Below, one piece after another: positions 3,769 through 48,683 of a stretch of 64,000 nucleotides of DNA (its first letter is position 1; each line of letters begins with the position of its first letter). A program made the translations under genes and the position numbers. Location of the stretch: sequence record NC_024125.2, one strand, 5' to 3'. The notes below the pieces were generated by a model. That model saw nothing but the letters and a program-made list of their open reading frames with translations. It made no database searches and was not told the DNA's origin. The DNA is from Escherichia phage vB_EcoM_112.

Positions 3769-3776
3769 TATAAATA
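3769..3776 (+). promoter_or_regulatory. T4-type late promoter (TATAAATA), distal copy upstream of gene 19
   Basis: Exact TATAAATA immediately after the hairpin. Confidence 0.5.
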
Positions 3777-3827
3777 CACTATATCCTTAATTCTTTAATT
3801 CTATATGCCCTAGGTTAAACATAGGGA

Positions 3828-3835
3828 TATAAATA
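3828..3835 (+). promoter_or_regulatory. T4-type late promoter (TATAAATA), proximal copy upstream of gene 19
   Basis: Exact TATAAATA 15 nt upstream of gp19 ATG, followed by GAGG SD. Confidence 0.6.
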
Positions 3836-3849
3836 CTACAGAGGCTAAT

Positions 3850-4341
3850 ATGTTTGTAGATGATGTAACACGAGCGTTTGAATCTGGTGATTTTGCTCGA
3901 CCTAACTTATTCCAAGTAGAAATTTCCTATCTTGGACAAAATTTTACGTTTCAATGTAAAGCCACTGCTTTACCAGCTGGTATTGTAGAAAAAATTCCAG
4001 TCGGATTTATGAACCGTAAAATTAACGTAGCAGGCGATCGTACATTCGATGACTGGACTGTTACAGTAATGAACGATGAAGCTCATGATGCTCGCCAGAA
4101 GTTTGTTGATTGGCAAAGCATTGCTGCGGGACAAGGAAACGAAATTACTGGTGGAAAACCTGCAGAGTATAAAAAGAGCGCTATCGTTCGTCAATATGCT
4201 CGTGACGCTAAAACAGTAACAAAAGAAATTGAAATTAAAGGTCTGTGGCCTACTAACGTGGGTGAACTTCAATTAGATTGGGATTCAAACAATGAAATCC
4301 AAACATTTGAAGTAACTCTTGCTCTCGATTATTGGGAATAA
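3850..4341 (+). CDS. 19: Tail tube protein gp19
   Basis: 163-aa ORF; size, position and sequence match T4 gp19. Confidence 0.95.
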   Translation: MFVDDVTRAFESGDFARPNLFQVEISYLGQNFTFQCKATALPAGIVEKIPVGFMNRKINVAGDRTFDDWTVTVMNDEAHDARQKFVDWQSIAAGQGNEITGGKPAEYKKSAIVRQYARDAKTVTKEIEIKGLWPTNVGELQLDWDSNNEIQTFEVTLALDYWE

Positions 4342-4348
4342 AATGAAT

Positions 4349-4362
4349 GGGGAGAAATCCCC
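4349..4362 (+). terminator. Intercistronic hairpin with GAAA loop after gene 19
   Basis: GGGGA-GAAA-UCCCC stem-loop directly downstream of gp19 stop. Confidence 0.4.
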
Positions 4363-4373
4363 ATCCTGCTTAA

Positions 4374-5998
<1,625 letters not shown>

Positions 5999-5999
<1 letters not shown>

Positions 6000-6214
6000 T
6001 GGAAGGTTTAATTGAAGCTATTAAATCAAACGACCTCGTAGCCGCTCGTAAATTATTTGCTGAAGCCATGGCTGCAAGAACGATTGATTTAATTAAAGAA
6101 GAAAAAATCGCTATCGCTCGTAATTTCTTAATCGAAGGTGAAGAACCTGAAGACGAGGATGATGACGAAGACGAAGACTCTGATGAAGATGACGAAGACG
6201 AGGATGATGAATAA
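5999..6214 (+). CDS. 67: Prohead core protein gp67 (acidic C-terminal tail)
   Basis: 71-aa ORF, start overlaps gp20 stop (TAATG); poly-Asp/Glu tail; position between 20 and 68 as in T4. Confidence 0.85.
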
Positions 6215-6639
6215 TGCTTCTGATCCCTGAAACTCATGAATTAGTTCTCGAGAATGTCGAAGCACTTATTCCTGAAGCACAGGGTCGCTTTGACGAATTG
6301 TCTTCTGCTTTAAATAAAGACGATATAAATACAATTGTCGAGAATATGCTTGATGATGAAACTGATTTAGCGGTTGCATTAGCTTCTATTAATGAAAACA
6401 TGCCGTTAAATGAATTCATTGTTAAGCACGTTTCAGCTCGTGGTGAAATTACTCGCACTAAAGACCGCAAAACGCGTGAACGAAATGCATTTCAAACCAC
6501 TGGGCTGTCTAAAGCAAAACGTAGACAAATTGCTCGTAAAGCTACCAAAACGAAGATTGCCAATCCAGCAGGTCAATCTCGTGCTCAGCGTAAGCGTAAA
6601 AAAGCTCTTAAACGCCGTAAAGCATTAGGATTAAGCTAA
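6214..6639 (+). CDS. 68: Prohead core protein gp68
   Basis: 141-aa ORF, basic C-terminus; position and size match T4 gp68. Confidence 0.85.
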
Positions 6640-7277
6640 TGAATGAACCCCAATTACTAATTGAAACTTGGGGTCAACCTGGCGAAATTATTGATGGCGT
6701 ACCAATGCTTGAATCTCATGATGGAAAAGACTTAGGTTTAAAACCGGGTTTATACATCGAAGGAATATTCATGCAAGCGGAAGTCGTCAATAGAAATAAA
6801 CGTCTTTATCCAAAACGTATATTAGAAAAAGCGGTAAAAGACTATATTAATGAGCAAGTTTTAACTAAACAAGCTCTCGGAGAATTAAATCATCCTCCAC
6901 GCGCTAATGTTGACCCGATGCAAGCCGCTATCATTATAGAAGATATGTGGTGGAAAGGAAATGACGTATACGGACGAGCTCGTGTTATTGAAGGTGACCA
7001 TGGTCCTGGAGATAAATTAGCAGCTAATATTCGTGCCGGATGGATTCCAGGAGTTTCTTCTCGTGGATTAGGTTCATTGACTGACACAAATAAAGGTTAT
7101 CGTATCGTAAACGAAGGATTCAAATTAACTGTAGGTGTTGATGCAGTATGGGGTCCAAGTGCTCCAGATGCATGGGTAACTCCTAAGGAAATTACCGAAT
7201 CACAGACGGCGGAAGCCGATACAAGTGCCGATGACGCCTATATGGCTCTCGCAGAGGCCATGAAAAAAGCGTTATAA
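6639..7277 (+). CDS. 21: Prohead core protease gp21
   Basis: 212-aa ORF; matches T4 gp21 in size and sequence. Confidence 0.93.
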   Translation: MNEPQLLIETWGQPGEIIDGVPMLESHDGKDLGLKPGLYIEGIFMQAEVVNRNKRLYPKRILEKAVKDYINEQVLTKQALGELNHPPRANVDPMQAAIIIEDMWWKGNDVYGRARVIEGDHGPGDKLAANIRAGWIPGVSSRGLGSLTDTNKGYRIVNEGFKLTVGVDAVWGPSAPDAWVTPKEITESQTAEADTSADDAYMALAEAMKKAL

Positions 7278-7280
7278 ATA
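7273..7280 (+). promoter_or_regulatory. T4-type late promoter (TATAAATA) upstream of gene 22
   Basis: Exact TATAAATA overlapping gp21 stop, 28 nt upstream of gp22 ATG. Confidence 0.6.
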
Positions 7281-7307
7281 TTATTATCTAAACAACAGGA
7301 CTACAAA

Positions 7308-8117
7308 ATGCTTAAAGAACAACTGATTGCCGAAGCGCAGAAAATTGATGCTTCCGTTGCTCTTGATAGTATTTTCGAATCAGTTAATATTTCTCCGGAA
7401 GCAAAAGAAACTTTCGGCACTGTATTCGAAGCTACCGTCAAGCAGCACGCCGTTAAATTAGCTGAATCTCATATCGCTAAAATTGCTGAAAAAGCAGAAG
7501 AAGAAGTAGAAAAAAATAAAGAAGAAGCCGAAGAAAAAGCTGAGAAGAAAATCGCTGAGCAAGCTTCTAAATTCATTGACCATCTTGCGAAAGAATGGCT
7601 CGCTGAAAATAAATTAGCAGTTGATAAAGGTATTAAAGCCGAACTGTTTGAATCCATGCTTGGTGGATTAAAAGAGCTCTTTGTTGAACACAACGTTGTT
7701 GTTCCAGAAGAATCAGTTGATGTTGTAGCTGAAATGGAAGAAGAGCTGCAAGAACATAAAGAAGAATCAGCTCGTCTGTTCGAAGAACTCAATAAGCGTG
7801 ACGCATATATCAATTATGTGCAGCGTGAAGTGGCATTGAGCGAAAGTACTAAAGATCTGACTGAGTCTCAAAAAGAAAAAGTCTCTGCTCTGGTCGAAGG
7901 TATGGATTATTCAGATGCATTCTCAAGTAAATTGAGTGCAATCGTAGAAATGGTGAAGAAATCTAATAAAGATGAAAGCACTATTACTGAGAGTATAAAT
8001 ACTCCTGATACTGAAGCAGCCGGACTGAATTTCGTCACTGAAGCTGTAGAAGATAAAGCTGCACAAGGTGCAGAAGATATTGTAAGTGTATATGCGAAAG
8101 TCGCATCTCGTTTCTAA
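7308..8117 (+). CDS. 22: Prohead scaffolding core protein gp22
   Basis: 269-aa acidic, coiled-coil-rich ORF; size and position as T4 gp22. Confidence 0.93.
   Translation: MLKEQLIAEAQKIDASVALDSIFESVNISPEAKETFGTVFEATVKQHAVKLAESHIAKIAEKAEEEVEKNKEEAEEKAEKKIAEQASKFIDHLAKEWLAENKLAVDKGIKAELFESMLGGLKELFVEHNVVVPEESVDVVAEMEEELQEHKEESARLFEELNKRDAYINYVQREVALSESTKDLTESQKEKVSALVEGMDYSDAFSSKLSAIVEMVKKSNKDESTITESINTPDTEAAGLNFVTEAVEDKAAQGAEDIVSVYAKVASRF
7994..8001 (+). promoter_or_regulatory. T4-type late promoter (TATAAATA) inside 3' end of gene 22, serving gene 23
   Basis: Exact TATAAATA about 135 nt upstream of gp23 ATG, within gp22 coding sequence. Confidence 0.55.
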
Positions 8118-38666: not shown

Positions 38667-40254
<1,588 letters not shown>

Positions 40255-40261
40255 AATAAAA

Positions 40262-40275
40262 TGGGCCTTACGGCC
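40262..40275 (-). other. GNRA-tetraloop hairpin between nrdB and denA
   Basis: Minus-strand GGGCC-GUAA-GGCCC between the nrdB stop and the denA start. Confidence 0.4.
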
Positions 40276-40281
40276 CACTCC

Positions 40282-40784
40282 TTAAAAATATTTTTTAAAA
40301 CTCATCATAACTTTATCATCAACATCATTATCAATCTGTGCAACAAGGTAAGATGACAGTTCTACTTCTTGTGGCGCGGATTGAACATTATCAGAATTAA
40401 GATATTCACGAATCCAAGGATACGGATGTTTAACCGGAGCATCGGTAATTGGGCATGGAAGACCACACTGTTTCATACGAGATACAGTTAAGTAATCAAT
40501 AAAGCTCCACATGCTATTTGTATTTAATCCAGGAACATCGCCATCTTTAAATAAATGAACTGCCCAATCTTTTTCTTGGCGGTTAACTTCCATGAAAATA
40601 TCAACTGCTTCTTGTTCACACTCTTGAGCAATTTTAACCCATTCATCGCCATCAGTGCCAAGTTGAAGTTGACGAATAATATATTGAGTGCCTTTAAGGT
40701 GAAGCTGCTCATCACGTGCAATGAACTTCATAATCTTGGCATTACCTTCCATGATTTCCATGTTCTTATGGAAGTTGAAAGTAC
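40282..40784 (-). CDS. nrdB: Ribonucleotide reductase small subunit NrdB, exon 2
   Basis: Continues ...SFA|C-TFNFHKNMEIMEGNAKIMKFIARDEQLHL... (compare E. coli SFACSFAFAERELMEGNAK); junction codon TGT is split 1/2 across the intron. Confidence 0.85.
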
Positions 40785-40920
40785 CGTTATGTTCGATTGA
40801 GCTCGCTAATTCTCAACCCGTTCTCTTATGAACTGCTACATATTACTATGCAGACCAGACTATATCACAATCCCAGAGGGATTCTCCCCATTTCGAGTCG
40901 CTTGACCCTACGTCCGAAGA

Positions 40921-41730
40921 CTAGTCGTTGAACCTTGCTTTGCAATTGTCGCCGTGCCATCGTTTATATGTTGATGGTGATAAATCTTTCTTATCACAAT
41001 ATGGACAATTCAATTGAATTCTATTTGGATTTAATTTACATCTGTCATTATGTTTTAGATAAAATCCAGGACCTTTACCAATGTGACCGCAGAAATCACA
41101 TGTGATTTCTTTTTGTGCAGGATGGGTCCCGTTCTTAACCATTTCTAATGTTTTTGCTGATGTTCTTTTCTTATGGTCTTCTGACAAGAAATGATGTGAA
41201 CCGTCATTTACCCGTTTTGATTGAGTTTCTGACTGCATTTTACCACCGCAAAATACATGAGTACCTTCTTTTATAGCTGCAATATTGCGTTCTTTAACTT
41301 TTGCAATATGCTCAGCTTGTTGAAAATTATGTATACCTAATGCAACTCTATTTAAATTAGATTTACGCTGTATTTCACCATCTAAAAGATGAAATGTACC
41401 ATTTTCTATCTTAGATTTAATAGAGGCAATATTTTTAGCTCGTACTTCAGGGATATTAAAAATCTGGATTTCTCTAGATTTTGCGGCTTTAGAAGCTAAT
41501 TCAGAAATTTCTTCAGGAGAATATTTCATTCTAAGCTTTATAGCATGACAAGCCTGGTAATCTTTTTGAGCTAAATGTATATCATAATGTTCCTGTATAG
41601 AAAGGCACATCAAATTATCTAAATCATTATTTTCACGGTTACCGTCTTTATGATGGATTTCGTATGTTCTTCCATCAGAATCTTTAGGTATAGGTCCGTT
41701 AGCATCTATCCAAATTTTTCTATAGTTCAA
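40921..41730 (-). CDS. Intron-encoded HNH homing endonuclease (I-TevIII-like, full length)
   Basis: 269-aa ORF; HNH motif EIHHKDGNRENNDLDNLMCLSIQEHYDIH, C-terminal Cys clusters; apparent TTG start 7 nt after AAGAGGA. Confidence 0.8.
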   Translation of the reverse strand: MNYRKIWIDANGPIPKDSDGRTYEIHHKDGNRENNDLDNLMCLSIQEHYDIHLAQKDYQACHAIKLRMKYSPEEISELASKAAKSREIQIFNIPEVRAKNIASIKSKIENGTFHLLDGEIQRKSNLNRVALGIHNFQQAEHIAKVKERNIAAIKEGTHVFCGGKMQSETQSKRVNDGSHHFLSEDHKKRTSAKTLEMVKNGTHPAQKEITCDFCGHIGKGPGFYLKHNDRCKLNPNRIQLNCPYCDKKDLSPSTYKRWHGDNCKARFND

Positions 41731-41757
41731 TTGTGCATCCTCTTAAAAGTATAATCA

Positions 41758-41765
41758 TATTTATA
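41758..41765 (-). promoter_or_regulatory. T4-type late promoter (TATAAATA on minus strand) inside the nrdB intron
   Basis: Plus-strand TATTTATA about 28 nt upstream of the endonuclease start. Confidence 0.5.
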
Positions 41766-41875
41766 TTATACTAATTAAAGGTGCAAGCAAAACCTTGGCT
41801 GCTAGTTTTCCTATAAAGGACTTTCCAGCAATTAAAGGAGTTTTCGATAAACGTTACCGTTTAAAGGCGCATTTT

Positions 41876-42551
41876 ACGCAAAAGATACATAAAAACGAAT
41901 AGCTTCTAAGGCATTAATAACGTGCAAACAGAGGTAAAGAGATTTCATTAAAGCACGTTTAGCTTCGGCTTCTTGCTTAATAGCTCGGTTTAAACGAAAG
42001 TCGGCATCAGGAGATTCTTTAGCTAGTTCTACAAATTCTTTAGCATTTTCCCATTCACGGGTTTTAACCAAGACATCATCATAATAGCGACCAATAGATT
42101 CAGCACGTTTCATGATAGCTTCATCTAATACAATCTCATCAAATACCTTTGACGGATCAGTATAAAGATTTCGCATGATATGTGTATATGAACGGCTGTG
42201 AATAGTTTCACTAAAAGTCCACGTAGCAATCCATGTATCAAGGCTTGGGTCTGAAATTAATGACATAAGTACAGCAGATGGCGCACGACCCTGAATGCTA
42301 TCCAAAAGTGATTGATACTTCAGATTATTAGTAAAAATATTTTGCTGATACTGAGGAAGCTTATTAAACTGTGCAGCATCCATCATCAAGTTTACTTCTT
42401 CAGGACGCCAGAAAAATGACAACTGCTTTTCGGTCAAATCTTCAAAAACTTTATGACGTTGAATATCATAACGCGCAATACCAAGACCTGAACCAAAAAA
42501 CATGGGTTCTTTTAAAACATCAACTGGATTTGTATTAAAAACTGTGCTCAT
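41876..42551 (-). CDS. nrdB: Ribonucleotide reductase small subunit NrdB, exon 1
   Basis: MSTVFNTNPVDVLKEPMFFG...LEAIRFYVSFA; diiron/tyrosyl-radical R2 fold; frame closes at intron UAA. Confidence 0.9.
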
Positions 42552-42602
42552 AAATTTTCCGCTTAGTTAATAGTTGGTGACTCGTCCGTGAGTCAAATTA
42601 TA

Positions 42603-43592
42603 TCATAATTTACAGGATGAACAATCTTCAGCTTTTGGAGTTTCTATTTCATAATCATCAGTACCAGAACCATCACGGGTATTATGATAATAGAAATTTT
42701 TTCCGCCAAAATACCAGAAATACAAAAGGTCATCAATCATTATTGACATTGGAACCTTTCCTTTAGGGAAGATTTGGGGGTCATAGTATGTATTCGCTGA
42801 AGCTGATTGACATACCCATTTCAGCATAATAGCTACCTGCGTAAGATAAGGTTTATTACCTTTCTTAGCTAATTTCCATGTATAATCATAGAGGTCTATG
42901 TTATGCTCAATATTGGGCACGACTTGATTAAAGGAGCCCTCTTTTGATTCTTTAACAGAGACTGGTCCACGTGGAGGCTCGATACCGTTTGTACTGTTAG
43001 AAACTTGGGAAGATGACTCACATGGCATAAGTGCTGATAATGTGCTATTACGGATGCCAAAGAGCTTAAGGTCTTCCCGCAGCGACGACCAGTCACAAAC
43101 GTATTTTGGAGCTGCGATTTGGTCAATCTTTTTATTGTACCAGTCGATAGGTAGTTCGCCTCGAGACCAACGAGTGTCTGAATAATATTCGCAAGGTCCT
43201 TTTTCTTTGGCGAGCTTAATGGATGCTTTAATGAGTCCATACTGTAATCTCTCAAATAGTTCATGTGTTAAATCGTTAGCATCTTCATAAGAAGCAAAGT
43301 TACTTGCCAGCCAAGCTGCATAGTTAGTAACACCTACACCAAGGTTTCGACGCTTTTTAGCTTTTTCTGCTTCAGGAACTGGATATCCTTGGTAATCCAA
43401 AAGATTATCAAGAGCACGAACTTGAACTTCTGCCAATTCATTAATTTTATCTTGGTCTTGCCAGTCAAAATTATCTAGTACGAATGCAGAGAGAGTACAA
43501 AGCCCCACTTCTCCCTTGTTTTCAATAACTTTTATTGTAGTATACTCATCATCTTCGTAAAATTCATCTACAAATTCATAATCAATATTCAT
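42603..43592 (-). CDS. nrdA: Ribonucleotide reductase large subunit, C-terminal piece (nrdA-b-like), separately initiated
   Basis: 329-aa ORF: 23-aa acidic leader MNIDYEFVDEFYEDDEYTTIKVI then conserved ENKGEVGLCTLSAF... through the C-terminal CSSCKL; ATG overlaps the stop of the HNH ORF. Confidence 0.8.
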   Translation of the reverse strand: MNIDYEFVDEFYEDDEYTTIKVIENKGEVGLCTLSAFVLDNFDWQDQDKINELAEVQVRALDNLLDYQGYPVPEAEKAKKRRNLGVGVTNYAAWLASNFASYEDANDLTHELFERLQYGLIKASIKLAKEKGPCEYYSDTRWSRGELPIDWYNKKIDQIAAPKYVCDWSSLREDLKLFGIRNSTLSALMPCESSSQVSNSTNGIEPPRGPVSVKESKEGSFNQVVPNIEHNIDLYDYTWKLAKKGNKPYLTQVAIMLKWVCQSASANTYYDPQIFPKGKVPMSIMIDDLLYFWYFGGKNFYYHNTRDGSGTDDYEIETPKAEDCSSCKL

Positions 43593-44292
43593 TTAATTCT
43601 TTTACCTTTTTTCTAGTAATTCCTAAAGCTTTAGATGCTCGATGTATTGATTGATATTCTATACCGTTTATTTTTACAGCAATTAAGTTATGGGGTTTTA
43701 ATCCCTTTGGATGAGGTTTACTGACGAAAACTAAATTATCAAGTTCTGAAATCTTATCCAATTTCTTACACTTAAATCCTTTGTGATGCGACCGTTTACC
43801 TTTACAAACGGCTGACATTGCAGATGGATTTAAATTATGCTCTTTACAAAATTCGTTAAGACCTCGATGAATTTCCTCATGACCATCCGGAAATGTAAAC
43901 ACCCAAGATGTTTGAAGTCGAGATTTAACTTCTGGAGACATAGGAATACCTTTGTTCCAAGCTGGTTTGCCTTTATTATTTTCAGATACAGAAATAGCCA
44001 ATTTTCTTCTAAGCCACCCATGGCGTTTATTGGTGTTCTTTCGTTCAATATTATCTTCAGAATAAACACACATCATATTAGCGGCAAATATCAATTTATG
44101 ATTATTTGGATATATCTTTACTAATAATTGATGAGCTATGTAATGCTCTTCTGGTGTCAAATCTACCAGGTTTTCCTTTGTATCAGAACCACCAATACAC
44201 AGAGGTATAATATGGTGTGATTCGGTATAGCAATCTAATTTTCTATTCTTAGCTTTAGAAATAAGGTTATTGTAAATTTTAAAATAATCCAT
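43582..44292 (-). CDS. Free-standing HNH homing endonuclease (MobE-like) inserted within nrdA
   Basis: 236-aa ORF; HNH motif CYTESHHIIPLCIGGSDTKENLVDLTPEEHYIAH; own AGAGGAAAAG SD; lies between the two nrdA pieces. Confidence 0.8.
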   Translation of the reverse strand: MDYFKIYNNLISKAKNRKLDCYTESHHIIPLCIGGSDTKENLVDLTPEEHYIAHQLLVKIYPNNHKLIFAANMMCVYSEDNIERKNTNKRHGWLRRKLAISVSENNKGKPAWNKGIPMSPEVKSRLQTSWVFTFPDGHEEIHRGLNEFCKEHNLNPSAMSAVCKGKRSHHKGFKCKKLDKISELDNLVFVSKPHPKGLKPHNLIAVKINGIEYQSIHRASKALGITRKKVKELNEY

Positions 44293-44337
44293 AACTTTTC
44301 CTCTTGTTATGGATTATTTATTAACGGTCTGTGTACT

Positions 44338-45771
44338 TTATTTGCTTTGAATTATACCGCCAGGATTAGCTTCATAAAACTTAGCTACATCCGACTTCTT
44401 AATTTTGATTAAACGGGTTTGTTGGCTATTCACATCATTTGTTGGAATAGCAATTTCACAGCACAAGTTACTCTGACGAATAGGTGCCTTTTCACGAATA
44501 AATGGAGTATAGTTATTCGTATTATCAATGAACTGCACATAAATCCTTGCTGTTCCTGAACGTTCAGTCATGAGCAATTCAAATAGTTCACGGGCTTTAA
44601 TACGCTTTTTACGAATATTAGGGTCTTTTTCTGCTGCTTCGTATAATTCACGGAAACGGTCTTGGTCTTTAAAATAAGAATAATAAAGCTCGCCACCCAT
44701 TTCATGCGGACTGAACAAAGTAATGTAATCGTTCTTTCCGAATCGTTCCATCATCAAATCATTCAGTTGAACACCATAATCCATATGACGAATGCGGTTT
44801 TCTTCTACGCCTTTGTTATTTTTCAAAACGAGAAGATTTTCAACTTCCAAATGCCAAATAGGATAATAAGCAGTAGCAGCGCCGCCACGAATTCCACCCT
44901 GTGAACATGATTTAACAGCAGTCTGAAAATGTTTCCAAAAAGGAATAACACCAGTATGGCGTACTTCACCCATGCCAATCTTAGAACCTTCAGCACGAAT
45001 CATACCAACGTTAATACCAATTCCAGCGCGTTTAGAGATATATTCAACAATTGAAGCGGAAGCCTTATTGATAGACTTCAATGAATCTCCTGCCTCAATA
45101 ACAACACATGAACTAAACTGTCGAGTCGGAGTACGGCAACCAGCCATAATAGGAGTTGGCAATGAAATCTGTCGAGTAGATACTGCTTCATAAAAACGAA
45201 TAACATGTTTTAATCTATCAACAGGTTCATCTTGATGCAATGCCATTCCAATAGTCATAAATGCAAACTGTGGAGTTTCATAAATTTGACCAGTGGTTTT
45301 ATCTTTAACTAGATATTTTTCTTTTAATTGCATCGCCCCGGAATAAGTAAATTCCATATCCCGTTCGTGCTTAATTTTTGATTCTAAAAATGTAATTTCT
45401 TCTGCTGAATATTTTGACAATAATTCAGGGTCATATTTACCTTCATTTACACAGTAAGAAATATGGTCAATAAATGAACGTGGTTCATACTGCCCATAAA
45501 CATGCTTACGAAGAGCAAACATTAAACAGCGTGCAGCTACATATTGATAATCAGGTTCTTCAACCGAAATAGAATTCGCAGCAGCCTTAATGACAATAGT
45601 CTGAATGTCATCAGTTGTCATTCCATCACGGAGATATGATTTAATATTTTCATATAATTCATAAGGATCTACTGATGTTCCCTCAGCTGCCCAAGATAAA
45701 ACTTTAATAATTTTTTGTGGGTCAAAGCTCTGAGAAACACCACTACTTTTGATAACATTAATTAATTGCAT
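44338..45771 (-). CDS. nrdA: Ribonucleotide reductase large subunit, N-terminal piece (nrdA-a-like)
   Basis: 477-aa [28 protein letters not shown]...; includes ATP-cone, FSSC and SNLCCEIAIPT active-site stretch, then 26 unrelated codons and stop. Confidence 0.85.
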   Translation of the reverse strand: MQLINVIKSSGVSQSFDPQKIIKVLSWAAEGTSVDPYELYENIKSYLRDGMTTDDIQTIVIKAAANSISVEEPDYQYVAARCLMFALRKHVYGQYEPRSFIDHISYCVNEGKYDPELLSKYSAEEITFLESKIKHERDMEFTYSGAMQLKEKYLVKDKTTGQIYETPQFAFMTIGMALHQDEPVDRLKHVIRFYEAVSTRQISLPTPIMAGCRTPTRQFSSCVVIEAGDSLKSINKASASIVEYISKRAGIGINVGMIRAEGSKIGMGEVRHTGVIPFWKHFQTAVKSCSQGGIRGGAATAYYPIWHLEVENLLVLKNNKGVEENRIRHMDYGVQLNDLMMERFGKNDYITLFSPHEMGGELYYSYFKDQDRFRELYEAAEKDPNIRKKRIKARELFELLMTERSGTARIYVQFIDNTNNYTPFIREKAPIRQSNLCCEIAIPTNDVNSQQTRLIKIKKSDVAKFYEANPGGIIQSK

Positions 45772-46088
45772 AAGTCCTCAACTTGAAAATCGTCTTTAAA
45801 CAATCGGTTAACTATATGAGCTATTATATCACCATGACACGGCTTTGGTTTACATGTGCATCCTAGCCTCATTCCACGTAAAGGCTCTAAATGTGCTTTA
45901 GTTATTTCTCCGGATTTAATTCGACGTATAAAATCTTTTTTGAATAATTCAATGGCAGCCTCTCGGCTGCCAGCATCTTTACCGACGTAATTTCCCCAAA
46001 ATGTACCACGGTGAATATTAACATCAAAGTCGGATTTATATTTATTCACTACCCGGCATAAACGGTCCGCGCGGTGATAATTCGGCAT
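45762..46088 (-). CDS. Hypothetical protein, DUF4326-like (T4 nrdA.1 position)
   Basis: 108-aa ORF with ...[10 protein letters not shown]...[13 protein letters not shown]... pattern that I associate with DUF4326 from memory. Confidence 0.6.
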
Positions 46089-46305
46089 ATTGTTTTTCCG
46101 TTAAAACAGTAATATCGTAGTAACAGTCAGAAGAAGTTTTAACTGTGGAAATTTTATTATCAAAATACTCACGAGTCATTTTATGAGTATAATATTTTTT
46201 GCCATAAATGATAATAGGCTGATTTGGTCCTGGAACTTCTAACTCGCTTGGGTTAGGAAGTGTAAAAAGAACTACACCAGAAGTGTCTTTAAATCGTAAA
46301 ATCAT
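46042..46305 (-). CDS. Hypothetical protein (T4 nrdA.2 position)
   Basis: 87-aa ORF; start abuts td stop; 3' end overlaps the next ORF by 47 nt. Confidence 0.55.
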
Positions 46306-46613
46306 ATTGCCATTTTCCCTTTAATTGCTGGATGCGATTCATAATTTTCAAGGATAAAATCTTTCGGTTTCATGTATTCAGTTAACCAGTAAAGCTGTGT
46401 TTCGGTGTCACAATTTCCAAACTCTATAGGCCAATCAATTTTAAGTTCACACAGTTCTTTAGGCTCACGACGTAAAATTTCTTTACATTGCTCAGTATGA
46501 TTCATATAGATGTGAGTATTACCACCAGAAAATATCAAATCTCCTGGGATAAGATTACACATCTTAGCCACAATATGTGTCAAGGCAGCGTACGAGGCAA
46601 TGTTAAACGGTAG
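46302..46613 (-). CDS. td: Thymidylate synthase, exon 2
   Basis: Resumes [25 protein letters not shown]...; intron ends on the G of an AUG immediately before CUA. Confidence 0.9.
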
Positions 46614-47058
46614 CATTATGTTCAGATAAGGTCGTTAATCTTACCCCGGAATTATATCCAGCTGCATGTCACCATGCAGATCAGACTATATCTCCATCTT
46701 GATAAAGCAAGATGTCTATCGTTTCGAGTCACTTGACTCTACTCCCTAAAGGGATAGTCGTTAGGCATTTATGTAGAACCAATTCCAGTTATCAGATTTT
46801 ACACGATAAGTAACTAATCCAGACGAAATTTTAAAATGCCTCTTCCATCTCTTTTCAAAATCTTTAGCACTTCCTACATATACTTTATTGTTTAAAGTAT
46901 TTTTAATCTGATAAATTCCGCTTTTCATAAATACCTCTTTAAATATAGAAGTATTATTAAAGGGCAGTCCTACAATTTAGCACGGGATTGTCTACTAGAG
47001 AGGTTCCCCGTTTAGATAGATTACAAGTATAAGTCACCTTATACTCAGGCCTCAATTA
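46614..47058 (-). mobile_element. Group I intron in td (~445 nt) with an internally deleted endonuclease ORF
   Basis: Exon 1 ends ...UUGGGU, intron begins UAAUUGAGGCCUGAGUAUAAGGUG as recalled for the T4 td intron; length is ~570 nt shorter than the 1016-nt T4 intron. Confidence 0.88.
46761..46928 (-). pseudogene. In-frame deletion remnant of the I-TevI GIY-YIG endonuclease gene
   Basis: 55-aa ORF MKSGIYQIKNTLNNKVYVGSAKDFEKRWKRHFK|ISSGLVTYRVKSDNWNWFYINA = I-TevI residues 1-33 fused to the last 22; below the ORF-track cutoff. Confidence 0.8.
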
Positions 47059-48430
<1,372 letters not shown>

Positions 48431-48440
48431 ATTATTTTCC

Positions 48441-48683
48441 TTAAACAGACTTTTTCACAATTTTCCAATCAGCTTTAAACTGATTAACATCAGAATGATA
48501 AATCCAGAATCCTGCGCTTTCTCCGTCTTCATAAAGAGGACACCCATCGCATTCATCTTCCCATCCCATATCACGTAAAAGATGTTCAGCTTTTTCAACG
48601 AGCTCAGAATCTTTACCGATGATATTAAAATACCATTTACCTCTAACTTCTGAATCTTTGATGCTTTGGCGTTGTAATCTCAT
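48441..48683 (-). CDS. Hypothetical protein (T4 frd.2 position)
   Basis: ORF-track start is GTG; ATG at 48683 with GAGGAGAATAAA SD gives 80 aa. Confidence 0.55.
   Translation of the reverse strand: MRLQRQSIKDSEVRGKWYFNIIGKDSELVEKAEHLLRDMGWEDECDGCPLYEDGESAGFWIYHSDVNQFKADWKIVKKSV

Follow-up and report, generated by a model that had tools for sequence, protein, structure and literature searches.

Why is the nrdA gene of Escherichia phage vB_EcoM_112 read in two separate pieces with a gene for an HNH endonuclease between them? In the 64,000-nucleotide stretch analysed here (from NC_024125.2, hereafter the window), this gene for the alpha subunit of ribonucleotide reductase (RNR) could be spliced, ruined or working in two parts. 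An original prediction had preferred a split gene of the Aeromonas phage Aeh1 mobE type over an intron or an intein, and this preference was borne out, since no intron or intein signature was found and both the cassette and its tails are homologous to those of Aeh1. We read the insertion as a MobE_split-type HNH cassette, the same element as that of Aeh1, which homed into the nrdA loop between C439/E441 and C462 (Escherichia coli numbering), and we put the probability of this reading at about 87%.

Anatomy of the interrupted nrdA gene

The locus is made of the following open reading frames (ORFs), with the first exon of nrdB behind them:

44338..45771, minus strand: nrdA-a, 477 aa, from the ORF list
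43582..44292, minus strand: HNH endonuclease ORF, 236 aa, with GAGGA upstream
42603..43592, minus strand: nrdA-b, 329 aa, from the ORF list
41874..42551, minus strand: nrdB exon 1, beginning 51 bp past nrdA-b

A spacer of 45 bp separates nrdA-a from the endonuclease ORF, and the ATG of nrdA-b lies 11 nt inside the end of that ORF, giving the stop/start overlap AATGAATATTGA. The 51-bp gap between nrdA-b and nrdB contains no ORF, and no intergenic mobE is present in the window. The three ORFs, their strand and their coordinates had all been predicted correctly, as had the spacer and a gene-free gap of ~ 50 bp.

On Pfam, the ATP-cone and the all-alpha domain fall on NrdA-a, and Ribonuc_red_lgC is divided, with its positions 1-221 on NrdA-a and 219-523 on NrdA-b. 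Aligned with E. coli NrdA, NrdA-a spans residues 6-455 and NrdA-b residues 454-751; the split is therefore at residues 454/455, in the loop flanked by the strand of C439/E441 and that of C462. The catalytic cysteines are divided, with C225 (C222 of NrdA-a) and C439/E441 (C437/E439) on NrdA-a, and C462 together with the C-terminal cysteines on NrdA-b; the alignment thus agrees with the expectation that each piece keeps active-site cysteines. Computed masses are 54.5 kDa for NrdA-a and 37.7 kDa for NrdA-b.

The boundaries of the insertion were set against the closest phages with an uninterrupted Tequatrovirus nrdA, such as Pu-Krd-SF6. The flanks are 99.3% identical to the intact Pu-Krd-SF6 gene up to 44424 and 97.9% identical from 43499 on, and the intact gene reads AATAGCC, then the displaced stretch CTGATGCTGAAATTGGATTG, then TGTACT. 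This comparison resolves the locus into the parts below, given with the isoelectric point (pI) of the two protein tails:

43500..44423, minus strand: whole mobile cassette, 924 bp in place of 20 bp encoding PDAEIGL
44424..45771, minus strand: native part of nrdA-a, residues 1-449, with the ATP-cone, the all-alpha domain and the first barrel half
44338..44424, minus strand: C-terminal tail of NrdA-a and stop, QQTRLIKIKKSDVAKFYEANPGGIIQSK, 28 aa, pI 10.0
43527..43592, minus strand: unique acidic leader of NrdA-b, MNIDYEFVDEFYEDDEYTTIKV, 22 residues, pI 4.05, charge -7.5
43500..43526, minus strand: loop replacement carried by the cassette, IENKGEVGL for native PDAEIGL
42603..43499, minus strand: native sequence of nrdA-b, beginning at C32 (E. 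coli C462) and including the C-terminal CxxC tail

The first base of the first tail codon (44424) is common to the native sequence, and the first 11 nt of the leader overlap the end of the endonuclease ORF. From the Cys codon of CTLSAF on, just after IENKGEVGL, the sequence is locally homologous to NrdA again; IENKGEVGL resembles the native loop IENKREIGL of NrdA from Yersinia phage TG1. Some of the dimensions proposed earlier had to be revised in consequence. The insertion of ~ 910 bp is there but measures 924 bp and replaces 20 bp, the leader is acidic as described but consists of 22 unique residues plus the nine of IENKGEVGL instead of 23, and the 26 unrelated codons ending NrdA-a become 28 when aligned with intact nrdA. 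In the case of the ~ 200 bp said to lie outside the endonuclease ORF, 213 bp of the 924 were found.

Homologues of the cassette in Aeh1 and in a metagenomic contig

The endonuclease has an HNH motif at residues 23-54 and an I-HmuI NUMOD-like DNA-binding domain at residues 135-173 (Pfam). It evolves under purifying selection (omega 0.16-0.22) with its HNH residues kept. A BLASTP comparison with MobE had been proposed for this ORF, and across 227 aa it indeed shares 45% identity with Aeh1 MobE (E 3e-57), which in 50,697 phage records is also the best match outside the coliphage clade (E 3e-46). The precedents named in the original prediction, namely the genes-in-pieces of Aeh1 (PMC3045599) and a T4 mobE lying between nrdA and nrdB (PMC2790892), are both right.

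The likeness to Aeh1 extends over the whole cassette. In Aeh1, nrdA-A (473 aa), mobE (237 aa) and nrdA-B (323 aa) follow each other in the same order, with a spacer of 46 bp against 45 bp in the window and a stop/start overlap, and the insertion sits in the same C439-C462 loop. Endonuclease, basic tail and acidic leader are all homologous, and a hairpin covers the endonuclease start in both phages. The tails were compared by local alignment against 2000 shuffles, and scores of z 6.2 were obtained for the tail (QQTRLIKIKKSDVAKF in the window, KEKMLFKVKKSEVDKF in Aeh1) and of z 9.1 for the leader (DEFYEDDEYTTIKV and YEVYEDEEYTTVEI respectively). Their pI values of 10.0 and 4.05 are close to the 10.4 and 3.8 reported for Aeh1 (PMC3045599). 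However, the window comes from a T4-like coliphage, and the identity between its native nrdA and that of Aeh1 is no more than 49-58%. The nrd genes of the window occupy the T4-like td-nrdA-nrdB position whereas those of Aeh1 lie elsewhere in the genome. The tail ends with …FYEANPGGIIQSK in the window and with …FKLMVATDQYKSLRY in Aeh1, and the hairpin pairs the AUG in the former but the Shine-Dalgarno sequence in the latter.

In Aeh1, tail-region peptides from both parts were detected in proteins from infected cells, and the N-terminus of the leader was confirmed by mass spectrometry (PMC3045599). Given that the tail peptides are present in the purified proteins, the Aeh1 tails are not processed away. 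The NrdA-a/NrdA-b heterodimer forms without them, but they are required for its dATP-driven dimerisation and for tight NrdB binding; their deletion lowers activity ~ 2000-fold, while the intact split enzyme is fully active (PMC3045599).

A third lineage was found with a DNA pattern for YED[DE]EYTT, which was searched in IMG/VR and in metagenomes. In IMG/VR the pattern returned only Aeh1, and among 16 metagenome matches there was one true new case, contig OEQO01000002.1 (positions 3770..7782; L097 below), where a T4-like nrdA carries an intermediate form of the MobE_split cassette. Its endonuclease is 63% identical to that of the window, its tail is KKNVLIKIKKSDVLDFYKKHPDGVIRT and its leader MSINYEIVDEFYEDDEYTTLQVIDSKEEIGL, so that LIKIKKSDV..FY and DEFYEDDEYTT are kept. 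Synonymous sites have almost reached saturation between the window and L097, with a proportion of synonymous differences (pS) of ~ 0.7. Nonsynonymous/synonymous proportions are 0.29/0.70 for the tail and 0.16/0.56 for the leader, compared with 0.22/0.71 for native NrdA-b and 0.27/0.67 for the endonuclease. Since these proportions are comparable to that of native NrdA-b, the tails are constrained as peptides. Moreover, homologous tails occur in three lineages (coliphage, L097 and Aeh1) with unrelated nrdA backgrounds, which argues that the antidote travels with the endonuclease as one mobile unit.

The nrdA-a of L097 additionally contains two complete contiguous mini-inteins, at KSC/SQGG and at SNL/C (a slash marks the junction). 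The second is homologous to the split intein of phage TG1, and the MobE_split cassette follows 12 codons after it; this one nrdA gene therefore holds three mobile insertions.

Two further features precede the endonuclease gene of the window:

44282..44319, minus strand: RNA hairpin, a 14-bp stem that pairs the AUG of the HNH ORF, with GAGGA in the 10-nt loop
44315..44322, minus strand: candidate late-promoter box AATAAATA, matching 7/8 of the T4 late box TATAAATA

The hairpin has a folding energy of -14.5 kcal/mol (z -4.4), and the box overlaps its 5' arm. L097 forms an equivalent structure (z -4.6) with one compensatory change of an A-U to a G-C pair, and at the aligned position it has an exact TATAAATA that likewise overlaps the 5' arm. 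The Aeh1 hairpin is unlike these in sequence but analogous, covering the Shine-Dalgarno sequence (z -4.2). In the published scheme for Aeh1 mobE and for the intron endonucleases of T4, the endonuclease is not translated from early and middle transcripts that read through, but it is from late ones that start inside the hairpin (PMC2988022).

Splicing, decay or a working split enzyme

A group I or group II intron holding an HNH ORF, with nrdA restored by splicing of the mRNA, would be in keeping with the neighbourhood. Indeed, both td and nrdB are interrupted by group I introns in the window, an HNH endonuclease being encoded in one of the two, and the authors of the UFV-AREG1 genome paper guessed that their homing endonuclease coding sequence (CDS) might signal introns. 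The covariance-model check suggested in the original prediction was performed with cmscan and Rfam over 40000..48500 (E<=10). Both true introns were detected, that of td at 46662..47068 (E 1.4e-7) and that of nrdB (E 8.6e-6), whereas no intron model, that of group I (RF00028) included, matched the nrdA insertion. A dedicated scan of 43400..44520 gave only chance snoRNA-like matches. This agrees with the original view that an intron was the less likely reading. Furthermore, all of the 213 nt outside the ORF except the 45-nt spacer is in-frame coding sequence conserved as protein, and this coding is kept at the amino-acid level although synonymous sites are near saturation. An intron is, on this evidence, barely credible.

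The intein possibility was raised by Crona et al. (PMC3045599). In this case the tails would be working or degenerate halves of a split intein, a so-called fractured gene, which splice in trans or associate by an intein-derived contact. Split inteins with a free-standing endonuclease do cut nrdA only 12 codons upstream, at SNL/C, in TG1 and in two IMG/VR contigs (L026 and L031), and the HNH domain of the TG1 endonuclease is 36% identical to that of the window (E 7e-12). However, tails of 28 and 22-31 aa are below the length of a Hint fold. They also do not have the N-terminal Cys/Ser and the C-terminal His-Asn, since the tail begins with Gln and the leader ends with Gly-Leu before Cys. Neither the tails of the window nor those of Aeh1 match Pfam Intein_splicing at E<=10, while the TG1 halves, used as positive control, score 2e-8 and 1.6e-4. 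Against three N-inteins and three C-inteins the tails align no better than shuffled sequences (z<1.3). Besides, L097 carries both the SNL/C intein and the cassette in one gene, hence the tails are not a remnant of that intein. Altogether we regard the intein explanation as very improbable.

A separate matter is whether the tail-endonuclease-leader cassette descends from a split-intein cassette that lost splicing but kept the association of the fragments. The same gene is cut 12 codons away, the endonucleases found there share the HNH domain, and in sequences as short as the tails an ancient intein kinship could escape sequence tests. We consider such descent unlikely. If true, it would represent a third, protein-level way, besides introns and inteins, of neutralising an endonuclease insertion.

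The nrdA of TG1 (vB_YenM_TG1, NC_028820: 137532..141179) was reached by a tblastn search with the leader in which residues 1-17 were masked by the low-complexity filter. It is split at SNL/C with a 316-aa HNH gene between the halves, and the annotation in its record is confined to two RNR fragments and a homing endonuclease. It is an example of the kind of fractured nrdA gene described by Dassa (2009; PMC2677866), and it resembles the window in having two ORFs, an HNH gene between them and an overlapping downstream piece. It differs in its site, 12 codons upstream, and in its flanks, which are genuine N- and C-inteins expected to restore one polypeptide, whereas in the window two polypeptides would persist if Aeh1 is a guide. 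L026, with an HNH endonuclease, and L031, with a GIY-YIG one, have the same fractured layout as TG1.

How a MobE_split cassette would be tolerated and spread can be proposed from the better known systems. The cassette closes nrdA-a with the in-frame 28-codon basic tail and a stop. It then brings a spacer of 45 bp, a hairpin that covers the endonuclease start, and the endonuclease gene itself; a new ATG overlapping the endonuclease stop opens the 22-residue acidic leader, and a diverged copy of the displaced 20 bp comes last. By analogy with Aeh1 (PMC3045599), NrdA-a and NrdA-b would be translated separately from one mRNA and form a heterodimer with a composite active site, and the oppositely charged tails would bring it into an (NrdA-a/NrdA-b)2 NrdB2 holoenzyme. 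Such a working split holoenzyme would make the insertion phenotypically neutral. As in T4 and Aeh1 (PMC2988022), the hairpin may silence endonuclease translation on early and middle nrd transcripts, and a late transcript starting within the 5' arm would expose the start site. The endonuclease, to go by the biology of homing endonucleases, would then nick or cut the intact nrdA of co-infecting phages near the site, repair would copy the whole cassette, and the diverged 20-bp copy would shield the carrier from self-cleavage.

Several points weigh against this account. The activity and the target site of the endonuclease are presumed from homing-endonuclease biology, and the protein, RNA and activity evidence comes from Aeh1, the coliphage carriers having been described as genomes only. 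nrdA-b is preceded by a weak Shine-Dalgarno sequence (AAGG) that is rather far from the start, at 12 nt. No exact TATAAATA lies upstream of the endonuclease gene in the window, where the candidate box is imperfect, so the late-promoter step is here a suggestion drawn from the related systems. The low ratio of nonsynonymous to synonymous divergence of the native halves mostly predates the insertion. Finally, T4 nrdA is listed as dispensable on nrd+ hosts, according to a table in PMC5931544 that gives Miller 2003 as its source, and a phage on such hosts would not strictly need a working nrdA.

The last point leads to the possibility that the split inactivated nrdA and that the ORFs are decaying remnants, with deoxynucleotides coming from the host RNR and the phage NrdD. 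It gains from the auxiliary role of T4 nrdA on nrd+ hosts and from the purely genomic description of the coliphage carriers. Nevertheless, neither a frameshift nor a premature stop interrupts the two halves or the endonuclease in the 33 records, which come from two genera, and catalytic residues are kept in both halves. Carriers in Tequatrovirus and Mosigvirus share identical or almost identical tails, whose protein sequence is also conserved in L097 and Aeh1, and the homologous Aeh1 enzyme is fully active (PMC3045599). Decay of nrdA is hence unlikely. Given this homology and the constraint on the tails, we infer that the coliphage cassette, too, leaves a tail-dependent active enzyme of two unprocessed polypeptides.

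Spread of the cassette and its mobile neighbours

The endonuclease occurs at 88-99.6% identity in 33 phage records (27 phages), among them HY01, PEC04, UFV-AREG1, F2, ZQ3, IME537, fPS-2, fPS-90 and AV111, and always inside a split nrdA. Most of these records annotate two RNR alpha-subunit CDS around a homing endonuclease. As 33 independent records have the same layout, the arrangement is not an assembly artefact. Between the window, a Tequatrovirus, and the Mosigvirus carriers F2 and AV111, native nrdA is 78-79% identical with a synonymous divergence (dS) of 1.7-2.4. For the 924-bp cassette the identity is 91-93%, with 98-100% in its tail and spacer, and the dS of the endonuclease is 0.30-0.33. 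The cassette being more alike than its flanks, it is much younger than the genomes and has moved horizontally, as homing predicts.

Within the 3' half of the endonuclease gene, the window type and the HY01/F2/AV111 type share only 71-83% identity over a patch at 43830..43990, whereas outside it the cassettes of the two types are 95-100% identical. In the patch the HY01 type appears nearer L097, as if alleles of the endonuclease had recombined in the region that binds DNA.

In IMG/VR, a scan with the endonuclease alignment gave Aeh1 as the only split case; at 18 other nrdA-linked loci the endonuclease lies downstream of nrdA or accompanies split inteins. When 1.84 billion representatives were searched with NrdA-b, many of the NrdA-b pieces obtained opened with a C-intein. 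Three metagenomic C-terminal NrdA fragments (P0065, P0101 and P0095) have no intein and begin just before (E/I)(V/I)SLC, in the same loop. Their leaders, two of the three acidic, show no significant similarity to that of the window, and these may be independent splits at the same site.

Whether the arrangement had been reported for a T4-like coliphage was left as a question in the original prediction, and the answer is yes, given 27 sequenced phages and a preprint of 2022 (10.1101/2022.08.31.505936). Split nrdA of this kind has been known since 2007 (Friedrich 2007), and coliphage instances were already in databases. The preprint describes a variant MobE within nrdA of Aeh1 'and several others' with conserved tails, and gives the coliphage split in passing, as an unpublished observation. 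Its File S4 lists MobE_split from Aeh1, F2, ZQ3 and HY01 and a protein mislabelled "B. cereus", which is most likely T4-like phage contamination of an assembly. The HY01, F2 and ZQ3 entries are the same cassette as that of the window, with tails identical or one residue apart and no substantive difference. PHROGs holds separate families for the two NrdA fragments. In the carrier genome papers examined the arrangement went unrecognised, one of them speculating on introns. What the present analysis adds is the exact boundaries, the tail-homology statistics, the horizontal spread, the conserved hairpin with covariation and a contig where intein and tail cassette coexist.

Two other T4 elements are related to the cassette. 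MobA, which splits the topoisomerase gene into genes 39 and 60, is likewise a Mob-family HNH endonuclease splitting an essential enzyme gene, and it also provides a C-terminal and an N-terminal extension and a copy of the displaced target region. However, its target gene is another one, its tails are unrelated, and its 50-nt translational bypass cassette is absent in the window. T4-type mobE has a homologous HNH domain and lies in the same operon, but it is intergenic, nicks nrdB and not nrdA, and splits no gene (PMC2790892). IME537 has the split-type MobE in nrdA together with a T4-type MobE-like gene of 243 aa between nrdA-b and nrdB (4248..4979 of its locus), and this intergenic protein is 33% identical to the endonuclease of the window. 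In 236Ecol005PP the same intergenic position is taken by a gene (4292..5083) whose annotation is DNA adenine methylase.

In a 7.3-kb part of the window, three nucleotide-metabolism genes are each broken by a different mobile element. The td group I intron (46614..47058, minus strand) is short, with ~ 445 nt compared with ~ 1 kb in T4, and all that is left of I-TevI is an N-terminal remnant ORF of 55 aa (46761..46928). The nrdB intron of ~ 1090 nt (40783..41873, minus strand) contains a full-length HNH ORF of 269 aa (40921..41730, TTG start as listed), which looks like the full-length form of I-TevIII, unlike the truncated one of T4. An exact TATAAATA is found at 41758..41765, just upstream of this ORF. 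UoN_LDJ77_1, the closest phage at nrdA with 98.7% identity across the locus, has an intron-less td whereas td of the window has its intron; hence the region is mosaic.

For annotation, these results mean that the two nrdA CDS of such coliphages should not be taken for pseudogenes and that the endonuclease is no sign of an intron. The coliphage version also brings into the tractable T4/E. coli system the 'molecular lego' question posed by Aeh1: by what means can a pair of short charged peptides make a radical enzyme with a split active site work again? The homologous tails of the three lineages support a view that has been voiced before, namely that the addition of tails offers a general alternative to introns and inteins.

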